Part shown: positions 5,975-21,877 of the stretch, in pieces
Numbering within the stretch: the first letter of the stretch is position 1
How the letters are laid out: each line of letters starts with the position of its first letter
Origin: a virus
Lineage: Duplodnaviria > Heunggongvirae > Uroviricota > Caudoviricetes
Reading direction: 5' to 3' (one strand)
IMG/VR virus record: IMGVR_UViG_2695420643_000029
DNA: 21,877 bases
Translations under genes and position numbers: made by a program
The notes under the pieces: generated by a model
Databases searched by the model: none
Seen by the model: only the letters and a program-made list of their open reading frames with translations
What the model was told of the DNA's origin: nothing

Positions 5975-6823
5975 CTATTTAATACTCAGCAACTGCTCGA
6001 CGGTCATATTTTTAATTGCGCTTCGGTTTACAAGAGTCCAGCCCTGTTTCTCCAGATAAAGGCGGAAAGTGTCCAGGGTACAGACGAGAGCGCCATCAGG
6101 AACGGTTTCAGTGAATTCGACGTTGCCGAATTTGTCGAAGCGAACAACCAGAGTGCGCCCATCGCCCGGAATGATTTTGTTTGTGGGAGTGGTATTATTC
6201 TGGCGTAGCTCTGCTTCCATGCGGTCGAACTCAGCGATGTAGGCCTCTTTGAATGCAGCGGCTTTTTTGCCAGTGAAACCCATCACCAGGAAAACGAAGC
6301 CGTTTTTGGTGATTTGGTACATTGGGAGTTTGCGCCCGGTTGAGTCGGTGTATTCACTTGGCTTAAAATTAAGCTCAGTGAATTCTGAGGAACATTCCAG
6401 AGCTTCAATTTTTTGAATGACGTTTTTATGCAGCTTGCGGAAAAACTCTGCAACTGCAACAGACGTAGTGACAGCACGACCATTTTCGATGGTTACGTCA
6501 GGGTGAGAAAGGGTAGGGATAGTAGCCATGATGGCAGCCTCTAGTGATAAGTTGGTAAACTCACCACCGGAGGTGCAAATCTCATGGGTGGTGAGACGTA
6601 CAGGGTTTGCACTACCGGTCACTAGAGAATCCGGCCCGCCCGAAAACGGCCCCATACGCCCCACCATAATCTGAATGTGGCTGCGCTTTACGCATAAAAA
6701 AACCGCTTTGGCGCGGTTATGCGCTCTAGTGATCATCGGGGTGCAAATCCCGGCACCCGTTTTATGAGGTGCAGGTGCACTATAATTCCACCCGTTCTGG
6801 TTTTCAATAGCTACATCCAACAT
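5975..6823 (-). CDS. Rha-family phage regulatory protein (Phage_pRha-like domain), with possible ~98-aa N-terminal extension
   Basis: Rha-like core (...GRAVTTSVAVAEFFRKLHKNVIQKIEAL...PMYQITKNGFVFLVMGFTGKKAAAFKEAYIAEFDRME); AGGTGAG SD before ATG 6823; alternative internal start at 6529 (MATIPTLSHPD) with AGAGG SD. Confidence 0.7.
   Translation of the reverse strand: MLDVAIENQNGWNYSAPAPHKTGAGICTPMITRAHNRAKAVFLCVKRSHIQIMVGRMGPFSGGPDSLVTGSANPVRLTTHEICTSGGEFTNLSLEAAIMATIPTLSHPDVTIENGRAVTTSVAVAEFFRKLHKNVIQKIEALECSSEFTELNFKPSEYTDSTGRKLPMYQITKNGFVFLVMGFTGKKAAAFKEAYIAEFDRMEAELRQNNTTPTNKIIPGDGRTLVVRFDKFGNVEFTETVPDGALVCTLDTFRLYLEKQGWTLVNRSAIKNMTVEQLLSIK
6694..6718 (-). terminator. Terminator-like hairpin (AACCGC-N6-GCGGTT + U7) inside the 5' part of the Rha-like ORF
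   Basis: Minus-sense stem-loop followed by TTTTTTT; its intragenic position is unusual. Confidence 0.35.
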
Positions 6824-7234
6824 TTTCTCTCACCTTTCATCACTGAAGTGAACTTTGTTGATGCGGTGCCTGGTGCCTCCAGGTGACGTTAACCAGTTAA
6901 CAATTAACGCCGGATAATCCACCCATAACACTGATGCTTTTAACTGTGCCGCGTGCGCTCAGCCGCATTCACCGCATCACAAAATTCACTTTAAAAAGGG
7001 GCGGCAGGGCAGCCACGGAGTAGAACTGATGCCGCCAAGACTACACACAGCAATGTCGTTATTTACAACCGGAGGCGCACTCCCACCATTTAAATTTAAC
7101 AGACAAGACCGACTCTTTATGGATATCGGAAATGCGCCTTCGTGTTGTGCCCGGTTTTATTTCACCACCTCCGGGCTTTGGTGGCCTCGGCTATACCCCT
7201 ACAGCAAGAATATTGAATTAATCCAATAAATGGT

Positions 7235-7387
7235 TTAGCTGGTATTTTTGGCAAGCCAGCGACGTGCGCCAGCTTCGGTTTTAAACGATTTGCTTTTGGT
7301 ATACGTCATTGCGGTGAACGCGCCGTCTTGGTTTGGAAACACGCCGCACACCAGGGATTCGTTATTGCCGAGGTCGATTTTTTGCAT
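7235..7387 (-). CDS. ydaF: YdaF-like small protein
   Basis: Hand-translated 50 aa MQKIDLGNNESLVCGVFPNQDGAFTAMTYTKSKSFKTEAGARRWLAKNTS; position matches Rac ydaF. Confidence 0.6.
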   Translation of the reverse strand: MQKIDLGNNESLVCGVFPNQDGAFTAMTYTKSKSFKTEAGARRWLAKNTS

Positions 7388-7397
7388 TTTTCGCACC

Positions 7398-7532
7398 TCA
7401 CATTTTGTTGTTGCGGATAGAGGCTTCTGCCTGCCAGAGATCCCAGTCGTTGCTGCGTAGAGCCTGTACAGCCTGGCTGTAAGTGATATCGCAACAATCC
7501 ATCAAATACTGAACTACTTCGTAATGCACCAT
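7398..7532 (-). CDS. ydaG: YdaG-like small protein
   Basis: Hand-translated 44 aa MVHYEVVQYLMDCCDITYSQAVQALRSNDWDLWQAEASIRNNKM; GGGGAGAG SD upstream. Confidence 0.6.
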   Translation of the reverse strand: MVHYEVVQYLMDCCDITYSQAVQALRSNDWDLWQAEASIRNNKM

Positions 7533-7598
7533 CTCATCTCTCCCCTTAACGCCGGGTGGCGGAACTAAAACCTACAGCGCCGTGCTGCTTCTGCAATA

Positions 7599-7627
7599 AT
7601 ATTAGTTATATTCATATAAGTGATCAA
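7599..7627 (-). promoter_or_regulatory. Candidate sigma70 promoter for ydaG-ydaF (TTGATC-N17-TAATAT on minus strand)
   Basis: Hexamers read directly from reverse complement; about 60 nt upstream of ydaG. Confidence 0.4.
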
Positions 7628-7721
7628 CACAAATATGCATTTTATTGATAAAAATGTACTATCGTAATGAAATTTTTAGTGTTTTTTTTGATAAAAAAGT
7701 AAGGTGAGGGAGCAGAGGGGA

Positions 7722-16949: not shown

Positions 16950-18896
16950 ATGACATTTAAACATTATGATGTTGTCAGGGCGGCGTCGCCGTCAGACCTT
17001 GCTGATGCACTTGCTCAAAAAATTCGTGAAGGATGGCAACCATACGGCGGGCCGTTTTCTTCGTATACGGATGATGGCGCAGCACTTATTCAGGCGATTG
17101 TCGCAGAAGGTGATGTGAGCACACCTGTTGTGGTGAAGCCGACAGGTGGAGAAGGTGCAGTAATCAGCGCCACCAGCGACCCGGAGTATTACTTTGTTGT
17201 GGTTCTGGCGGGGCAGTCAAACAGCATGGCATATGGTGAAGGCCTTCCGCTGCCGGAGACATATGACCGTCCGGACCCGCGCATTAAGCAGCTGGCGCGT
17301 CGCAGTACGGTGACACCGGGCGGTGTCGCCTGTAAATATAACGACATCATTCCGGCGGACCATTGTCTGCATGATGTGCAGGACATGAGCCGCCTTAACC
17401 ATCCGAAAGCGGACCTGTCAAAGGGGCAGTACGGAACCGTGGGGCAGGGGCTGCATATCGCCAAAAAATTGCTGCCGTTTATACCGGCGAATGCGGGCAT
17501 TCTGCTGGTTCCGTGCTGTCGTGGTGGTTCAGCGTTCACCACCGGAGCTGATGGCACATACAGTGACGCGAGTGGTGCTTCGGAGAATTCAACCCGCTGG
17601 GGTGTGGACAAGCCGCTGTATAAGGACCTTATCGGTCGAACAAAAGCAGCACTGAAGAAGAACCCGAAAAATGTGCTGTTTGCCGTGGTGTGGATGCAGG
17701 GGGAATTTGATTTTGGCGGTACGCCGGCAAATCACGCAGCACAGTTTGGTGCGCTGGTTGATAAATTCCGTGCAGACCTGGCGGATATGGCAGGTCAGTG
17801 CGTCGGTGGCTCTGCTGGCGGTGTTCCCTGGATATGTGGAGATACGACGTATTTCTGGAAGCAGAAGAACGAATCCACGTACCAGACGGTGTACGGCAGC
17901 TATAAAAACAAAACGGAAAAGAATATCCATTTCGTACCGTTCATGACCGATGAGAACGGGGTGAATGTGCCGACGAACAAACCGGAAGAAGACCCGGACA
18001 TTCCGGGTATCGGATATTACGGTTCGAAATGGCGTGACAGCTCAGCCACCTGGACGTCACAGGACAGGGCGAGCCATTTCAGCGCCTGGGCACGCCGTGG
18101 GATTATTTCCGACCGTCTGGCAACGGCGATTTTGCGCCATGCGGGAAGAGTGGCGCTAAACGCGGGGGCATCATCGACAGTATCAGAGGTGCGCCCTTCA
18201 TCGCCTTCCGATGCAGAAGCCACAGGCGTCACAACACTGCTCTCTTACCTTGCCAGCGAGTCAGAGGGAAGCCTGAAAGTACAGGGATGGTCAGCCAGTG
18301 GCGGCAGGGCAGAAGTGGTCAGCGATGCGGAGGGAACCGGAGGTAAGGCAGTGAAGCTGACCAAGGAGGCCGGTAAAAGCAGCTGGGTGCTGGAGTACGC
18401 CGCGGGCAACGGTGCGGCTCTGTTACAGAAAGGGGGGCAGATTCGCTGCCGCTTTAAGGTTTCGGGAGCGCTGGCTGCGAACCAGTATGTTATGGCGTTT
18501 TACTGGCCGGTATCTTCACTGCCACAGGGCGTTGCCCTGACCGGAGACGGGGGGAATAACCTGCTGGCAGCGTTCTACATCCAGACAGATGCAAAAGACC
18601 TGAATGTGATGTACCACAATGCGAAAGTGGCGACAAACAACCTGAAACTGGGAACCTTTGGCGCATTTGATAACGAATGGCATACGCTGGCTTTCCGCTT
18701 TGCCGGGAATAACAGCCTTCAGGTGACGCCGGTTATTGATGGTCAGGATGGCACACCGTTCACGCTGACGCAGTCACCGGTCAGTGCATTTGCGGCGGAT
18801 AAACTGCATGTGACAGACATTACCAGGAGTGCGACTTACCCGGTGCTGATTGACAGCATTGCGGTGGAAGTGAACAGCACAGACACTGCGGCATGA
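16950..18896 (+). CDS. nanS-p: Prophage sialate O-acetylesterase-like protein (NanS-p type; SGNH/SASA esterase core)
   Basis: 648 aa; GQSN motif in FVVVLAGQSNSMAYG; GGGAGG SD; position between Q region and lysis cassette as in Stx-type lambdoid prophages. Confidence 0.65.
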   Translation: MTFKHYDVVRAASPSDLADALAQKIREGWQPYGGPFSSYTDDGAALIQAIVAEGDVSTPVVVKPTGGEGAVISATSDPEYYFVVVLAGQSNSMAYGEGLPLPETYDRPDPRIKQLARRSTVTPGGVACKYNDIIPADHCLHDVQDMSRLNHPKADLSKGQYGTVGQGLHIAKKLLPFIPANAGILLVPCCRGGSAFTTGADGTYSDASGASENSTRWGVDKPLYKDLIGRTKAALKKNPKNVLFAVVWMQGEFDFGGTPANHAAQFGALVDKFRADLADMAGQCVGGSAGGVPWICGDTTYFWKQKNESTYQTVYGSYKNKTEKNIHFVPFMTDENGVNVPTNKPEEDPDIPGIGYYGSKWRDSSATWTSQDRASHFSAWARRGIISDRLATAILRHAGRVALNAGASSTVSEVRPSSPSDAEATGVTTLLSYLASESEGSLKVQGWSASGGRAEVVSDAEGTGGKAVKLTKEAGKSSWVLEYAAGNGAALLQKGGQIRCRFKVSGALAANQYVMAFYWPVSSLPQGVALTGDGGNNLLAAFYIQTDAKDLNVMYHNAKVATNNLKLGTFGAFDNEWHTLAFRFAGNNSLQVTPVIDGQDGTPFTLTQSPVSAFAADKLHVTDITRSATYPVLIDSIAVEVNSTDTAA

Positions 18897-19032
18897 TAAA
18901 AAAAACCGCCAGCGACAGGAATGGACGCTGGCGGTGGTAATACCTATGGAGAAAAAATAAAGGAACGATACTTTCGTACTCTGGTTTTTTAATGAAAACA
19001 GTTCTTATTGTCAACAATAACGGAAAGAAATT

Positions 19033-19212
19033 ATGACATTTCTGAACCAGTTAATGCTGTACTTCTGTACGGTGGTCTGTGTGCTGTATCTCCTTTCGGG
19101 TGGGTACAGGGCCATGCGTGACTTCTGGCGCAGACAGATTGACAAAAGGGCCGCTGAGAAAATCAGCGCCAGTCAGTCAGCCGGAAGCAAACCCGAAGAG
19201 CCGCTCATTTAG
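19033..19212 (+). CDS. Small hypothetical membrane protein (59 aa)
   Basis: Hand-translated MTFLNQLMLYFCTVVCVLYLLSGGYRAMRDFWRRQIDKRAAEKISASQSAGSKPEEPLI; hydrophobic N-terminus. Confidence 0.4.
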   Translation: MTFLNQLMLYFCTVVCVLYLLSGGYRAMRDFWRRQIDKRAAEKISASQSAGSKPEEPLI

Positions 19213-19252
19213 CGGCAACTTTCTTAATCACATCTTTCGACGAGAAAATCCC

Positions 19253-19498
19253 ATGTCAGAAATTACATCCCTGGTCACTGCTGAAGCAGTGAAGGAAGTC
19301 CTGCGCTCTGAAGAAGTCCGGAGCGCACTGAAACAGAAACTTCGCCATAACCTGGAAGCGCGTCTTGATGCAGAAGTGGATGCCATTCTGGATGAACTGC
19401 TGGGCGCACCGGCAGCTCCGGAGCCGGAAGGCATCGCGGGTGAGGGGAGTGCTTCAGATAGCGGTGACCCCACACCGGACAGCGACATGATGATGTAA
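19253..19498 (+). CDS. Small hypothetical acidic protein (81 aa)
   Basis: [50 protein letters not shown]...; longest ORF from 19079 overlaps previous ORF. Confidence 0.5.
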
Positions 19499-19575
19499 GC
19501 ATGCGTCAGGGACCATCGGTGTGTGCCGGTGGTCTTTTTTATTGTTGTGAGCTTCCGGATTGCGGGAGGCGGGGT

Positions 19576-19791
19576 ATGAACCAGATGGAAAAAATCACAA
19601 CAGGTGTGTCATACACCACGTCAGCGGTGGGAACGGGCTACTGGTTCCTGCAGTTGCTGGACAGGGTTTCCCCGTCTCAGTGGGCGGCAATAGGCGTGCT
19701 GGGGAGTCTGCTGTTTGGTCTGTTGACGTACCTGACGAACCTGTATTTCAAAATCAGAGAGGACCGTCGTAAGGCGGCGCGGGGAGAGTAG
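19576..19791 (+). CDS. S: Class II holin / pinholin (phage-21 S-like) with dual-start motif
   Basis: 71 aa [71 protein letters not shown]; two in-frame Met starts (19576, 19585); GGGAGG SD. Confidence 0.85.
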
Positions 19792-19794
19792 ACG

Positions 19795-20436
19795 ATGAAC
19801 CATGAAGAAATGAATCAGCGCATAAGTTGCCTGGAAAATGAAATCACTGAACTGAATAAAAAACTGTCGGTGCTGATGGTTTCTGAAGATGAAAAAAAAC
19901 GCCGCGATGAGCAGGAAGCAGCGTTTTACGATGATTGCATCAAAATTGCTCGCAGGACCTTTGCGAAGATTTTGCAGGAAAAGTTTTTACCGACCGCATT
20001 GTCAGAAAAGTACTCCATTACAGTTAAAAGTGCCGGAGAGGAAGGCAATAAACGTTATTTTATTGCGTCTGCACCGGATAAAGACCAGGAATGGGAGTGT
20101 AATCGGCCATCTTTTATTGTGACCAGCGATGACTGGAATATCACGATCAGTGAAGATGGAAAAGTAACACCAGCATCGCACCAGCACAGTGAGGCGCTCA
20201 TTGAATTTGCCATTGATTACCTGAAGAACAATAAAAAGCAGGGACTAATGAAGCGCATTGGTCGTTGCATGGGATATCTGCAGGTAGCTGCTGAGATTGA
20301 AGCGCTGGCCAGTGGTGCGGACAAGGATGCAGTTGTGCGGGAGGCTCTTCTTCGTGATTTTGATAATCCGCCCTTTAAAAAAGTGCCGGCTTACTGGTTT
20401 CATCCAGGACTGACTTATCTTAAAGGACGTATATAA
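19795..20436 (+). CDS. Unknown 213-aa protein inserted between holin and endolysin
   Basis: ORF with GGGGAGAG SD, starts 4 nt after holin stop; N-terminal coiled-coil-like segment; no catalytic motif recognised. Confidence 0.7.
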   Translation: MNHEEMNQRISCLENEITELNKKLSVLMVSEDEKKRRDEQEAAFYDDCIKIARRTFAKILQEKFLPTALSEKYSITVKSAGEEGNKRYFIASAPDKDQEWECNRPSFIVTSDDWNITISEDGKVTPASHQHSEALIEFAIDYLKNNKKQGLMKRIGRCMGYLQVAAEIEALASGADKDAVVREALLRDFDNPPFKKVPAYWFHPGLTYLKGRI

Positions 20437-20478
20437 GCTGGCTCGTTATCTGTTGCCGATAAATCCTGATAAATATCC

Positions 20479-21012
20479 ATGAACACCAAAATCAAATACG
20501 GCCTGTCGGCTGCCGTTCTGGCGCTGATTGCCGCTGGTGCGTCTGCGCCTGAAATTCTCGACCAGTTTCTTGACGAAAAAGAAGGTAACCACACCACGGC
20601 ATACCGTGATGGTGCGGGGATCTGGACCATCTGCCGTGGAGCCACCCGGGTGGATGGTAAGCCTGTTATTCCCAGCATGAAGCTGTCGAAGGCAAAATGC
20701 GCTCAGGTTAACGCCATTGAGCGTAATAAGGCGCTGGCATGGGTGGAGAAAAACATCAAAGTGCCATTGACCGAACCACAGAAAGCGGGGATTGCGTCAT
20801 TCTGTCCGTACAACATTGGCCCCGGTAAGTGTTTCCCGTCGACGTTTTATAAACGAATTAATGCAGGCGATCGCAGGGGGGCGTGTGAGGCGATTCGCTG
20901 GTGGATTAAGGACGGTGGCAGAGACTGCCGTATTCGCTCAAACAACTGTTACGGTCAGGTATCCCGTCGCGACCAGGAGAGTGCGCTGGCGTGCTGGGGA
21001 ATTGACAGATAA
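20479..21012 (+). CDS. R: SAR endolysin (T4-lysozyme-like muramidase with N-terminal signal-anchor-release domain)
   Basis: 177 aa; hydrophobic N-terminus YGLSAAVLALIAAGASA; catalytic-region pattern EGNHTTAYRDGAGIWTICRG. Confidence 0.85.
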   Translation: MNTKIKYGLSAAVLALIAAGASAPEILDQFLDEKEGNHTTAYRDGAGIWTICRGATRVDGKPVIPSMKLSKAKCAQVNAIERNKALAWVEKNIKVPLTEPQKAGIASFCPYNIGPGKCFPSTFYKRINAGDRRGACEAIRWWIKDGGRDCRIRSNNCYGQVSRRDQESALACWGIDR

Positions 21013-21105
21013 GCAGAATATTTTGCTGAAAAATGCGGTTTGCTCACACGGACGGATAACACGAAATCCTGCGAACTGACAAAAACTAAGTGAATAAAAG
21101 TAAAA

Positions 21106-21140
21106 AACCCCGTTTGTTGGCTGCAAGCGGGGTTTTGTGT
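21106..21140 (+). terminator. Hairpin terminator between endolysin and spanin genes
   Basis: CCCCGTTTG-TTGGCTG-CAAGCGGGG followed by TTTTGTGTTT. Confidence 0.55.
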
Positions 21141-21172
21141 TTCCTGACTCTGGAAAAGTCAAAGGAGAAAGT

Positions 21173-21310
21173 GTGTTTGATTTTAGCAAACTGATTCGGG
21201 AGATTCGAGTGATGGCTGAAAAATTATCCACCTGGAAGTTCATTCTTATCTGGCTGGTGTTTGTGATTATGGCCTCCGGTTATTTCATCGGTCAGATACG
21301 CTGGTGGTGA
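21173..21310 (+). CDS. Possible small membrane peptide upstream of Rz (45 aa, GTG start)
   Basis: AAGGAG SD 5 nt upstream of GTG; hydrophobic WKFILIWLVFVIMASGYFIG; stop 1 nt before Rz ATG. Confidence 0.35.
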   Translation: MFDFSKLIREIRVMAEKLSTWKFILIWLVFVIMASGYFIGQIRWW

Positions 21311-21311
21311 A

Positions 21312-21806
21312 ATGAACCGCGTACTGTGCGTGGTCATCATTGCCCTGCTGGTGGCCTGTGGTGCGCTTAGTCTGGGGCTGAATCATTACCGTGATAACGC
21401 CATAACCTACAAAGAGCAGCGCGATAAAAAAGTCAGTGAGCTGGAGCAGGCAAATGCAACCATTACTGATATGCAGCAGCGCCAGCGTGATGTTGCTGCA
21501 CTCGATGCAAAATACTCGAGGGAATTAGCCGATGCGAGAGCTGAAAATGAAACTCTGCGTGCTGATGTTGCCGCTGGTCGTAAGCGCCTGCGGATCAACG
21601 CCACCTGCCCCGGTACCGTGCGTGAAGCCACCGGCACCTCCGGCGTGGATAATGCAACCGGCCCCCGACTGGCAGACACCGCTGAACGGGATTATTTCAT
21701 CCTCAGAGAACGGTTGATGACAATGCAGAAGCAGCTGGAAGGGGCGCAGGAATATATCCGCACTCAGTGCACTAAGCTGGCTTTTTATTATCCGGAGGAT
21801 ACATGA
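21312..21806 (+). CDS. Rz: Rz i-spanin
   Basis: 164 aa with lambda-Rz-like NHYRDNAITYKEQRDK...QRQRDVAALDAKYSRELADA...RLADTAERDYFILRERL. Confidence 0.9.
   Translation: MNRVLCVVIIALLVACGALSLGLNHYRDNAITYKEQRDKKVSELEQANATITDMQQRQRDVAALDAKYSRELADARAENETLRADVAAGRKRLRINATCPGTVREATGTSGVDNATGPRLADTAERDYFILRERLMTMQKQLEGAQEYIRTQCTKLAFYYPEDT
21532..21717 (+). CDS. Rz1: Rz1 o-spanin lipoprotein embedded in +1 frame of Rz
   Basis: 61 aa MRELKMKLCVLMLPLVVSACGSTPPAPVPCVKPPAPPAWIMQPAPDWQTPLNGIISSSENG; lipobox-like LVVSAC; Pro-rich. Confidence 0.85.
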   Translation: MRELKMKLCVLMLPLVVSACGSTPPAPVPCVKPPAPPAWIMQPAPDWQTPLNGIISSSENG

Positions 21807-21877
21807 AGAAATTACTGGTAACCGTAAAGCCTTTTCAGGGAACAATTCCGTTCCGTGTTTTGCAGCGTGGTCGTGTT
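21803..21877 (+). CDS. 5' end of a further ORF (MKKLLVTVKPFQGTIPFRVLQRGRV...), truncated by window end
   Basis: ATG overlaps Rz stop (ATGA); only 25 codons visible. Confidence 0.3.
   Translation, partial: MKKLLVTVKPFQGTIPFRVLQRGRV

Follow-up and report, generated by a model that had tools for sequence, protein, structure and literature searches.

A modular YdfR-slot gene lacking DUF1327 in the lysis cassette of a Rac-site Escherichia coli prophage

The window (the whole stretch of DNA analysed, 21,877 nucleotides) was recognized as a lambdoid Escherichia coli prophage of the Rac site (ttcA/intR) with a late region resembling that of Stx phages, stx genes being absent. The gene under study, here called gene A, occupies positions 19795..20436 of the + strand, starts with ATG, ends with TAA (20434-20436) and encodes a product of 213 aa (24.4 kDa, pI 5.9). 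It is preceded by gene S of an S21-type class II holin, or pinholin (19576..19791, +; PF04971 'Bacteriophage P21 holin S', 9e-33; phrog_9876/phrog_20), which has the dual start M1/M4 (MNQM) and the stop codon TAG at 19789-19791. Three bases (ACG) separate the two genes, the ATG of gene A beginning at the fourth base past the holin stop, and a Shine-Dalgarno sequence GGGGAG (19781..19786, +) lies within the final holin codons, 8 nt 5' of this ATG. A junction of 3-4 nt between S and gene A recurs among the relatives; no unusual RNA structure was found at the junction (z = -0.16) and no Rfam family within gene A. A spacer of 42 nt (20437..20478) extends from the stop of gene A to the ATG (20479) of gene R, encoding a SAR-type endolysin (R21-like lysozyme; 20479..21012, +; PF00959, 2.8e-24; phrog_7 endolysin) whose N-terminus, YGLSAAVLALIAAGASA, is a Gly/Ala-rich, weakly hydrophobic segment. 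Further downstream lie the i-spanin gene Rz (21312..21806, +; PF03245, 4.9e-50; phrog_13) and the o-spanin gene Rz1 (21532..21717, +), a 61-aa ORF embedded in Rz with a lipobox-like LVVSAC. The ORF, its Shine-Dalgarno sequence and its tight fit between pinholin and SAR endolysin could all be read from the sequence as the earlier note had described them.

Several further elements were observed around the cassette. A terminator-like hairpin of 13 pairs with a T-run (19508-19537) lies between a DUF826 gene and the holin start, and Q-modified polymerase would need to read through it. Directly 3' of the endolysin gene there is a strong hairpin of 14 bp with flanking A and T runs (21104-21136). The small ORF that comes next (21137-21310; phrog_6632), of 57 aa if started at GTG and 45 aa if started at ATG, contains a hydrophobic segment and forms a second intervening gene of the cassette, between R and Rz. 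The region from Q to nanS, the position of stx in Stx phages, includes zero stx genes and three RNA features (16401-16460, 16547-16740 on the + strand and 16741-16802 on the - strand), namely a tRNA-like element and the sRNAs STnc100 and AgvB (anti-GcvB); the tRNA-like element reached 37 bits with Rfam yet was not called by ARAGORN. Other prophage RNAs, RalA antitoxin, C4/isrK/DicF and sok, gave Rfam gathering-score matches at 1557-1735, 6584-7049 and 14009-14184.

A Q-like late antiterminator is encoded upstream of the cassette (15586..16248, +; PF06576 DUF1133, 3.6e-103; PF06530 Phage_antitermQ, 29.1 bits with a cut-off of 26). The consensus scan found no sigma-70-like promoter on the + strand at 18800-21877 and no terminator-like site between gene A and R. 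Judged from its placement, the upstream Q and the lack of a detected promoter of its own, gene A is plausibly co-transcribed late with S and R, which agrees with the late co-expression proposed earlier. Because gene A is embedded 3 nt past the holin stop and neither a promoter nor a terminator of its own was detected, it would be a late gene and not a moron expressed in the lysogen.

The whole gene A product matched the profile phrog_1085, a family of unknown function, with an E value of 4.6e-104 (349 bits), covering positions 117-296 of the 296 in the profile. The homologues found in the databases were all from E. coli or Shigella and included short forms of 185-222 aa and long forms of 268-333 aa. 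The first ~100 residues of the long forms constitute DUF1327 (PF07041), and the sources name these proteins 'YdfR family protein'. The gene A product aligned over its full length to the C-terminal two thirds of the long forms, from the coiled coil after DUF1327 to the C-terminus, and its match to phrog_1085 is partial because the long homologues carry the additional N-terminal DUF1327. This domain was not detected in the gene A product (no PF07041 match at E up to 0.1), nor anywhere in the window when the DUF1327 of long forms from E. coli and Salmonella was used as tblastn query. Gene A thus has the position of the YdfR family, between an S21-type holin and a lysozyme, and lacks its DUF1327 domain. 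As judged from the alignments, it is a natural short isoform in which the coiled coil and the C-terminal domain, CTD1, have been kept and DUF1327 is missing. The gene that the earlier note could not assign to any family is therefore a DUF1327-less and partner-less form of a known but uncharacterized modular YdfR-slot gene, and it carries a domain of orphan fold. More distant homologues, in Salmonella enterica prophages, start with a DUF1327-like head (with a weak PF07041 match), which is followed by a coiled coil and then by the same C-terminal domain.

The annotation of these genes is uneven. In NZ_CP091682.1 (1858688-1859578; locus L229, 1952-2842) an intact long-form ORF of 296 aa has been called a partial pseudogene by RefSeq/PGAP; it is labelled 'YdfR family protein, missing C-terminus', and the part coding for CTD1 has been left unannotated. 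In many E. coli genomes 'none' is annotated under the CTD1 match, probably owing to the same pseudogene mis-call.

The gene A product was divided into three modules. Module 1 (aa 1-63; 19795..19983, +) is a helical hairpin or coiled coil and aligns to the linker helix that succeeds DUF1327 in the long forms. Module 2 (aa 64-100; 19984..20094, +) is a variable linker, which the 185-aa and 268-aa forms have lost or exchanged for other sequence, and module 3 (aa 101-213; 20095..20433, +) is the conserved CTD1. An AF2 model built with 17 close homologues was unusable (pLDDT 52.7), and the analysis was rerun with 46 diverse sequences, giving a mean pLDDT of 78. The second model predicts a hairpin at residues 3-63 (helices 3-26 and 31-63, pLDDT ~66-90), a low-confidence linker (pLDDT <50 for residues 66-99) and, for CTD1, three short strands followed by four helices (pLDDT 85-97). 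The motifs of CTD1 are GRCMGYLQVAAEIEA and DFDNPPFK..P..W..PG..YLK.R. In the alignment of 46 Escherichia and Salmonella sequences, the gene A product included, the residues G156, R157, L162, Q163, A165, P193, K195, W201, P204 and Y208 of CTD1 were invariant. Many of the E. coli forms and most of those from Salmonella have the domain fused to DUF1327.

Comparisons with known proteins gave few matches. In Foldseek searches with the full-length AF2 model, which a weak domain-level match may escape, the best E values were 0.37 in BFVD and 2.6 in PDB. Sequence searches of PDB, both with the single sequence and with the 46-sequence profile, found nothing below E 0.07. The sole Pfam match of the gene A product was a 14.8-bit Relaxase_C on the coiled coil, and NCBIfam gave no match. 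No PADLOC model (PADLOC-DB 2.0) matched the gene A product, one long form or two proteins of the convergent gene B described below, and the library matches of the long forms, the B proteins and the alternative slot genes were limited to DUF1327 and PHROGs of unknown function. Lysis-accessory, defence and toxin families searched for in the family libraries, PDB and BFVD did not match the gene A product, nor did it have sequence or fold similarity to spanins, releasin, RI/RIII, LydB and the like. In CTD1 no catalytic-looking motif or toxin fold was seen in the 46-sequence alignment or with Foldseek. The profile and structure searches proposed in the earlier note, which had named homology to a lysis-accessory family of defined function as decisive, neither supported nor contradicted its readings of gene A as a lysis modulator or a late moron for exclusion, host interaction or anti-defence. 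Literature searches with the accession and PHROG identifiers returned no paper on the gene A product or any CTD1 protein, and nothing relevant was found on genes intervening between holin and endolysin; DUF1327 came up in one comparative-genomics paper, and the sole functional paper found on ydfR was PMC13232886.

The product of gene A is acidic and hydrophilic (GRAVY -0.59), with a maximum 19-residue Kyte-Doolittle mean of 0.76. Neither a transmembrane segment nor a signal peptide was detected in it, at least one transmembrane segment being characteristic of holins and antiholins. A membrane or secreted role was rejected, there being no hydrophobic segment.

Selection was studied by comparing gene A with six collinear 213-aa homologues, of which the sixth, 99.2% identical, was too close to inform dN/dS. 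With the other five (88-94% identical DNA) the overall dN/dS was 0.20-0.29, the C-terminal domain having 0.09-0.25 and the first 66 residues 0.6-0.8. In the related 185-aa form all 14 distinct alleles were intact and lacked gene B, with dN/dS of 0.15-0.42. The start Met of gene A is common to its homologues, and its GC content is 44%, versus 55% in S and 54% in R. Gene A is a true coding gene, and purifying selection acts on it. An annotation artefact or a chance ORF was rejected on the basis of conservation and dN/dS.

The same data bear on whether gene A is a decaying remnant, without function, of a longer YdfR-family gene that was truncated at its N-terminal end. Both DUF1327 and the partner gene are gone, a deletion scar is visible and the window is a Rac-site prophage, a kind that is often defective. 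However, the forms without DUF1327 make up a widespread lineage whose own start and Shine-Dalgarno sequence are conserved, and neither the low dN/dS of CTD1 (0.09-0.25) nor the intactness of all 14 B-less alleles is what decay would leave, so that this explanation is highly improbable. Very probably gene A is a real late accessory gene of the modular YdfR-slot family.

The occupancy of the slot between holin and endolysin was surveyed in 80 IMG/VR loci with a holin at least 97% identical to that of the window, and 69 of these loci were evaluable. A gene of the modular family was present in 59 of the 69 S21-type cassettes, while in ten the slot was empty, with 4 nt between S and R. The occupants were a DUF1327-only gene in 28 loci, a DUF1327-only gene followed by a convergent phrog_2411 gene in 13, a CTD1-containing gene in 15, a gene with DUF1327 and coiled coil only in two, and a CTD2 gene with a convergent 233-aa gene in one. 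Also in complete E. coli genomes, those of O157:H7 Sakai-type and ST131 included, a 'YdfR family protein' typically separated the holin from the lysozyme in the best matches to the S-R region. In the closest phage-database matches to this region, among them 933W-like Stx phages, S was joined directly to R, and 4 of the 369 matching phage records covered at least 80% of an S-R query that included gene A. The slot gene is accessory and common, and the 'canonical' empty cassette is a minority among resident prophages. An intervening gene is thus not the departure from the S-R arrangement that it had been taken for, and the comparison with the lysis cassettes of related prophages, which had been suggested at the same time, revealed a slot normally occupied by a gene of the modular family.

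The nearest relative of the window was 98.4% identical over 97% of the window, yet had a different slot occupant, consisting of DUF1327, the coiled coil and a different C-terminal domain, followed by a convergent 233-aa gene. The slot is thus a recombination hot spot. This alternative occupant and its convergent 233-aa gene, the latter without family match, lie in locus L005 (22783-23574, +, and 23323-24024, -) and in L261. In an ST131 locus (L232) a DUF1327-only YdfR of 114 aa (1021-1365, +) is accompanied by a convergent 90-aa phrog_2411 gene (1331-1603, -); this third type of convergent gene, the 3' end of which overlaps the end of ydfR, was also the one found in 13 IMG/VR loci.

CTD1 DNA was present in 787 of 5426 complete E. 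coli genomes (about one in seven), in up to five copies each, and in 5 of 50,697 phage records. An exhaustive HMM search of 1.84 billion representative proteins gave 43 matches, all of them fragments or relatives of the same family. A scan of 185,579 species-representative genomes yielded three loci, each from Escherichia or Shigella, and an IMG/VR scan with the alignment of the Salmonella branch found E. coli-type loci only. The family is confined to lambdoid prophages of Escherichia, Shigella and Salmonella. In E. coli the CTD1 gene followed directly after the S21 holin in all 80 of 80 loci. In the Salmonella loci with a holin in the sequenced stretch the gene was located upstream of the holin, at most one or two genes away, and there the holins belonged to another family, PF16080. 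In one Salmonella prophage (L179, 3157-4469) the family member was situated just downstream of a pertussis-toxin-S1-like (ArtA-like) gene and its small partner, a site equivalent to the cargo position of stx.

This constant contact with the lysis cassette is what would be expected of a lysis-timing modulator, a cytoplasmic protein tuning the triggering of the pinholin, for instance via the charged cytoplasmic tail of the holin. In addition to the adjacency in all 80 E. coli loci and the near adjacency in Salmonella, the start of gene A 3 nt past the holin stop, with its Shine-Dalgarno sequence, suggests coupled expression. The gene is nevertheless dispensable, as many functional Stx phages and ten of the 69 cassettes join S to R, and the dual start of the holin already supplies an antiholin. 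The product has no transmembrane segment and no similarity to known lysis regulators, the Salmonella copies lie beside a different holin family, PF16080, and the intervals from Q to S and from S to R are also classical cargo sites (stx, hicAB and artAB-like genes). The explanation furthermore leaves the coupling to the convergent gene B unaccounted for, and a role in lysis timing is considered unlikely.

Gene B is a convergent ORF of ~105 aa (phrog_1853, unknown function), located 13-16 nt stop-to-stop from the CTD1 gene. It is present after this gene in Stx2 phage 86, other Stx2a phages and many prophages; copies, all on the - strand and convergent to the CTD1 gene, were located in L003 (2585-2899), L002 (2549-2863), L001 (6652-6924), L088 (5807-6124), L091 (585-902) and L179 (5599-5916). 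In the Stx1a prophage of strain 08-00022 (L001) an IS1 (6966-7660) lies between gene B and the endolysin gene, parting S-A-B from R. The B proteins of E. coli and Salmonella were 37-50% identical, and the placement of the pair differs between the two: E. coli has the order S-A-B-R, Salmonella the order Q...(hicAB or artAB-like cargo)...A-B-holin. In IMG/VR, CTD1 was found convergently beside B in all 44 evaluable B loci, one more locus having no sequence room, while 48 of the 80 A loci (60%) were without B. CTD1 is thus genetically coupled to gene B in Escherichia as well as in Salmonella. A consensus scan detected no promoter for B; Pfam, NCBIfam, PADLOC and PDB gave no matches for B, and the B-protein profile matched RecA in PDB at chance level only. 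The neighbour varies with the type of the C-terminal part: CTD1 goes with phrog_1853, CTD2 with the 233-aa gene and the DUF1327-only form with phrog_2411, which points to a separate partner gene for each C-terminal type.

The window contains no intact gene B, and phrog_1085 is accordingly present there without the phrog_1853 of the A-B module. A remnant of the 3' end of gene B was recognized at 20446..20457 (-), 12 nt comprising the stop and codons for R, N and G, when compared with the intact B end (...SGNR*) in L006 and L003. The left 22 nt of the spacer are identical to the bases after gene A in the B-containing loci, and the right 20 nt to those that directly precede R. Both breakpoints are in the imperfect repeat CCG[G]ATAA, and the B-containing relatives are 410 nt longer. 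Read from these junctions, the window has lost B by a deletion of 410 bp, and the 42-nt spacer is its scar. Because the same scar is found behind the 185-aa and 268-aa forms, the deletion is old and has later been spread by recombination.

The loss of B could also mean that gene A is a late effector without its safety catch. CTD1 would then be harmful or reprogram the host in the terminal phase and B would be its cognate inhibitor, absent here; DUF1327 would target the long forms to RNase E, and B would guard lysogens against leaky expression. Such a role would suit the shared N-terminal modules with alternative C-terminal domains and a specific neighbour gene for each, as well as the small, fast-shuffling, low-GC and narrow-range character of the family and its far greater frequency in resident prophages (787/5426 E. 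coli genomes) than in sequenced phages (5/50,697 records). It does not fit well with the 60% of loci that lack B and still have an intact and constrained gene, CTD1 has no catalytic-looking motif or toxin-fold match, and the toxin and defence libraries gave zero matches. A late effector is accordingly rather improbable.

The explanation preferred here is a partner-binding late accessory protein, which as a whole is put forward tentatively, from sequence and predicted structure, and with less than even confidence. In this model the gene A product would be a non-essential, soluble cytoplasmic accessory protein whose action depends on binding, not on catalysis or on insertion into the membrane. 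It would oligomerize, probably through the N-terminal hairpin, and the ligand of CTD1 would be a B-type protein and/or a host factor; in the long relatives the same module would be tethered to RNase E via DUF1327. The accessory nature is supported by the joining of S to R in 10/69 cassettes and in the closest phage-database matches, and gene A is likely to stand outside the core lysis machinery. A binding protein is proposed because of the adjacency to holins in two genera, the fusion to DUF1327, the asymmetric coupling to B and the selection in the absence of B; also the confident model of CTD1 without an enzyme-like structural match was counted in its favour. Whether the product acts by binding a partner through CTD1 is evenly balanced. 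The favoured direction is that of a late-made antidote or neutralizer, because A stands alone under selection without B and B was never found without A, and the copy in the window would then be an orphan neutralizer or counter-measure. That the product is specifically the antidote of B-type proteins is nonetheless doubtful.

Certain observations count against the binding model. No promoter was found for B, and its expression in the lysogen is an assumption. The asymmetry between A and B fits equally well with B being a mere regulator or safety catch of an effector A, and polymorphic effectors have the same layout of conserved N-terminal part, variable C-terminal part and cognate neighbour, in which case A would be the effector. 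The adjacency to holins in two genera could instead mean a role in lysis timing, and PADLOC has no model for A or B. A broader reading joins these elements: the slot of enterobacterial lambdoid prophages, Stx phages included, may host an unrecognized polymorphic two-gene system combining prophage defence or toxin with late self-immunity, the window gene being an orphan antidote or counter-defence. The late protein of such a system may be modular, in that a DUF1327 head binding RNase E is present in some forms only, a coiled coil comes next and the C-terminal domains, of orphan fold, can be exchanged; each C-terminal type may be paired with its own convergent, independently transcribed partner. 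This joint reading is speculative and unlikely to hold as stated.

Gene A lies in the cassette that times host lysis and hence, in STEC prophages, the release of Shiga toxin. The whole family has been annotated as 'hypothetical' or mis-called as truncated pseudogenes, although its CTD1 is present in about one in seven complete E. coli genomes. Three results make a defined module of the ORF, namely the usual occupation of the slot by a modular gene, the identification of the window copy as the DUF1327-less half and the coupling of its conserved domain to a partner that has been deleted. If A and B constitute a defence/self-immunity or effector/antidote pair, or if they tune the fate of late RNA or the moment of lysis, they would add a new accessory layer to the textbook cassette; if they have no such role, gene A is one more lambdoid cargo gene.

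Among known systems, T4 RIII is a cytoplasmic co-factor of lysis inhibition that acts on the T holin. It and other soluble lysis-timing factors are small, soluble, lysis-encoded proteins and resemble the gene A product by functional analogy only; no sequence or fold similarity to them was detected. Toxin-antitoxin and effector-immunity pairs share with A and B the asymmetric dependence of two genes and the covariation of the partner type with the C-terminal domain. Unlike in those pairs, A and B are convergent, not co-transcribed and without a match to a toxin-antitoxin, defence or toxin model. Lambdoid morons and cargo genes (bor, lom, stx, hicAB) are, like gene A, found in late operons, present or absent among near-identical prophages and low in GC. 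Of the features by which Hendrix defined the moron, gene A shows variable presence and atypical composition, while the promoter and terminator of its own were not found in the consensus scan, the only search made for them.

The closest comparisons are within the YdfR family itself. K-12 YdfR (Qin cryptic prophage, b1555, 103 aa, PF07041) occupies the same slot, between the class II holin gene essQ and the lysozyme gene rrrQ, and the Qin ydfR, to which the earlier note had pointed, proved a good positional lead. YdfR consists of DUF1327 and an unrelated tail and has zero residues in common with the coiled coil, linker and CTD1 of the gene A product. In two-hybrid and pull-down experiments its residues 1-72, belonging to DUF1327, interacted with the N-terminal, catalytic half of RNase E, and RNA co-purified with it (PMC13232886). 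The gene A product is predicted not to bind RNase E, because the surface of YdfR residues 1-72 is absent from it. The long YdfR-family proteins, e.g. gp05 of Stx2-converting phage 86 (YP_794052, 268 aa), all of which are annotated as hypothetical, differ from gene A in having an N-terminal DUF1327 and many of them a gene B, the window being without either. They share with it the slot, the same S and R flanks and a CTD1 76-91% identical. The K-12 YdfR and the gene A product each correspond to one piece of the long modular proteins (268-333 aa), and because they align to separate parts of these long forms, ydfR and gene A represent non-overlapping halves of one modular family.
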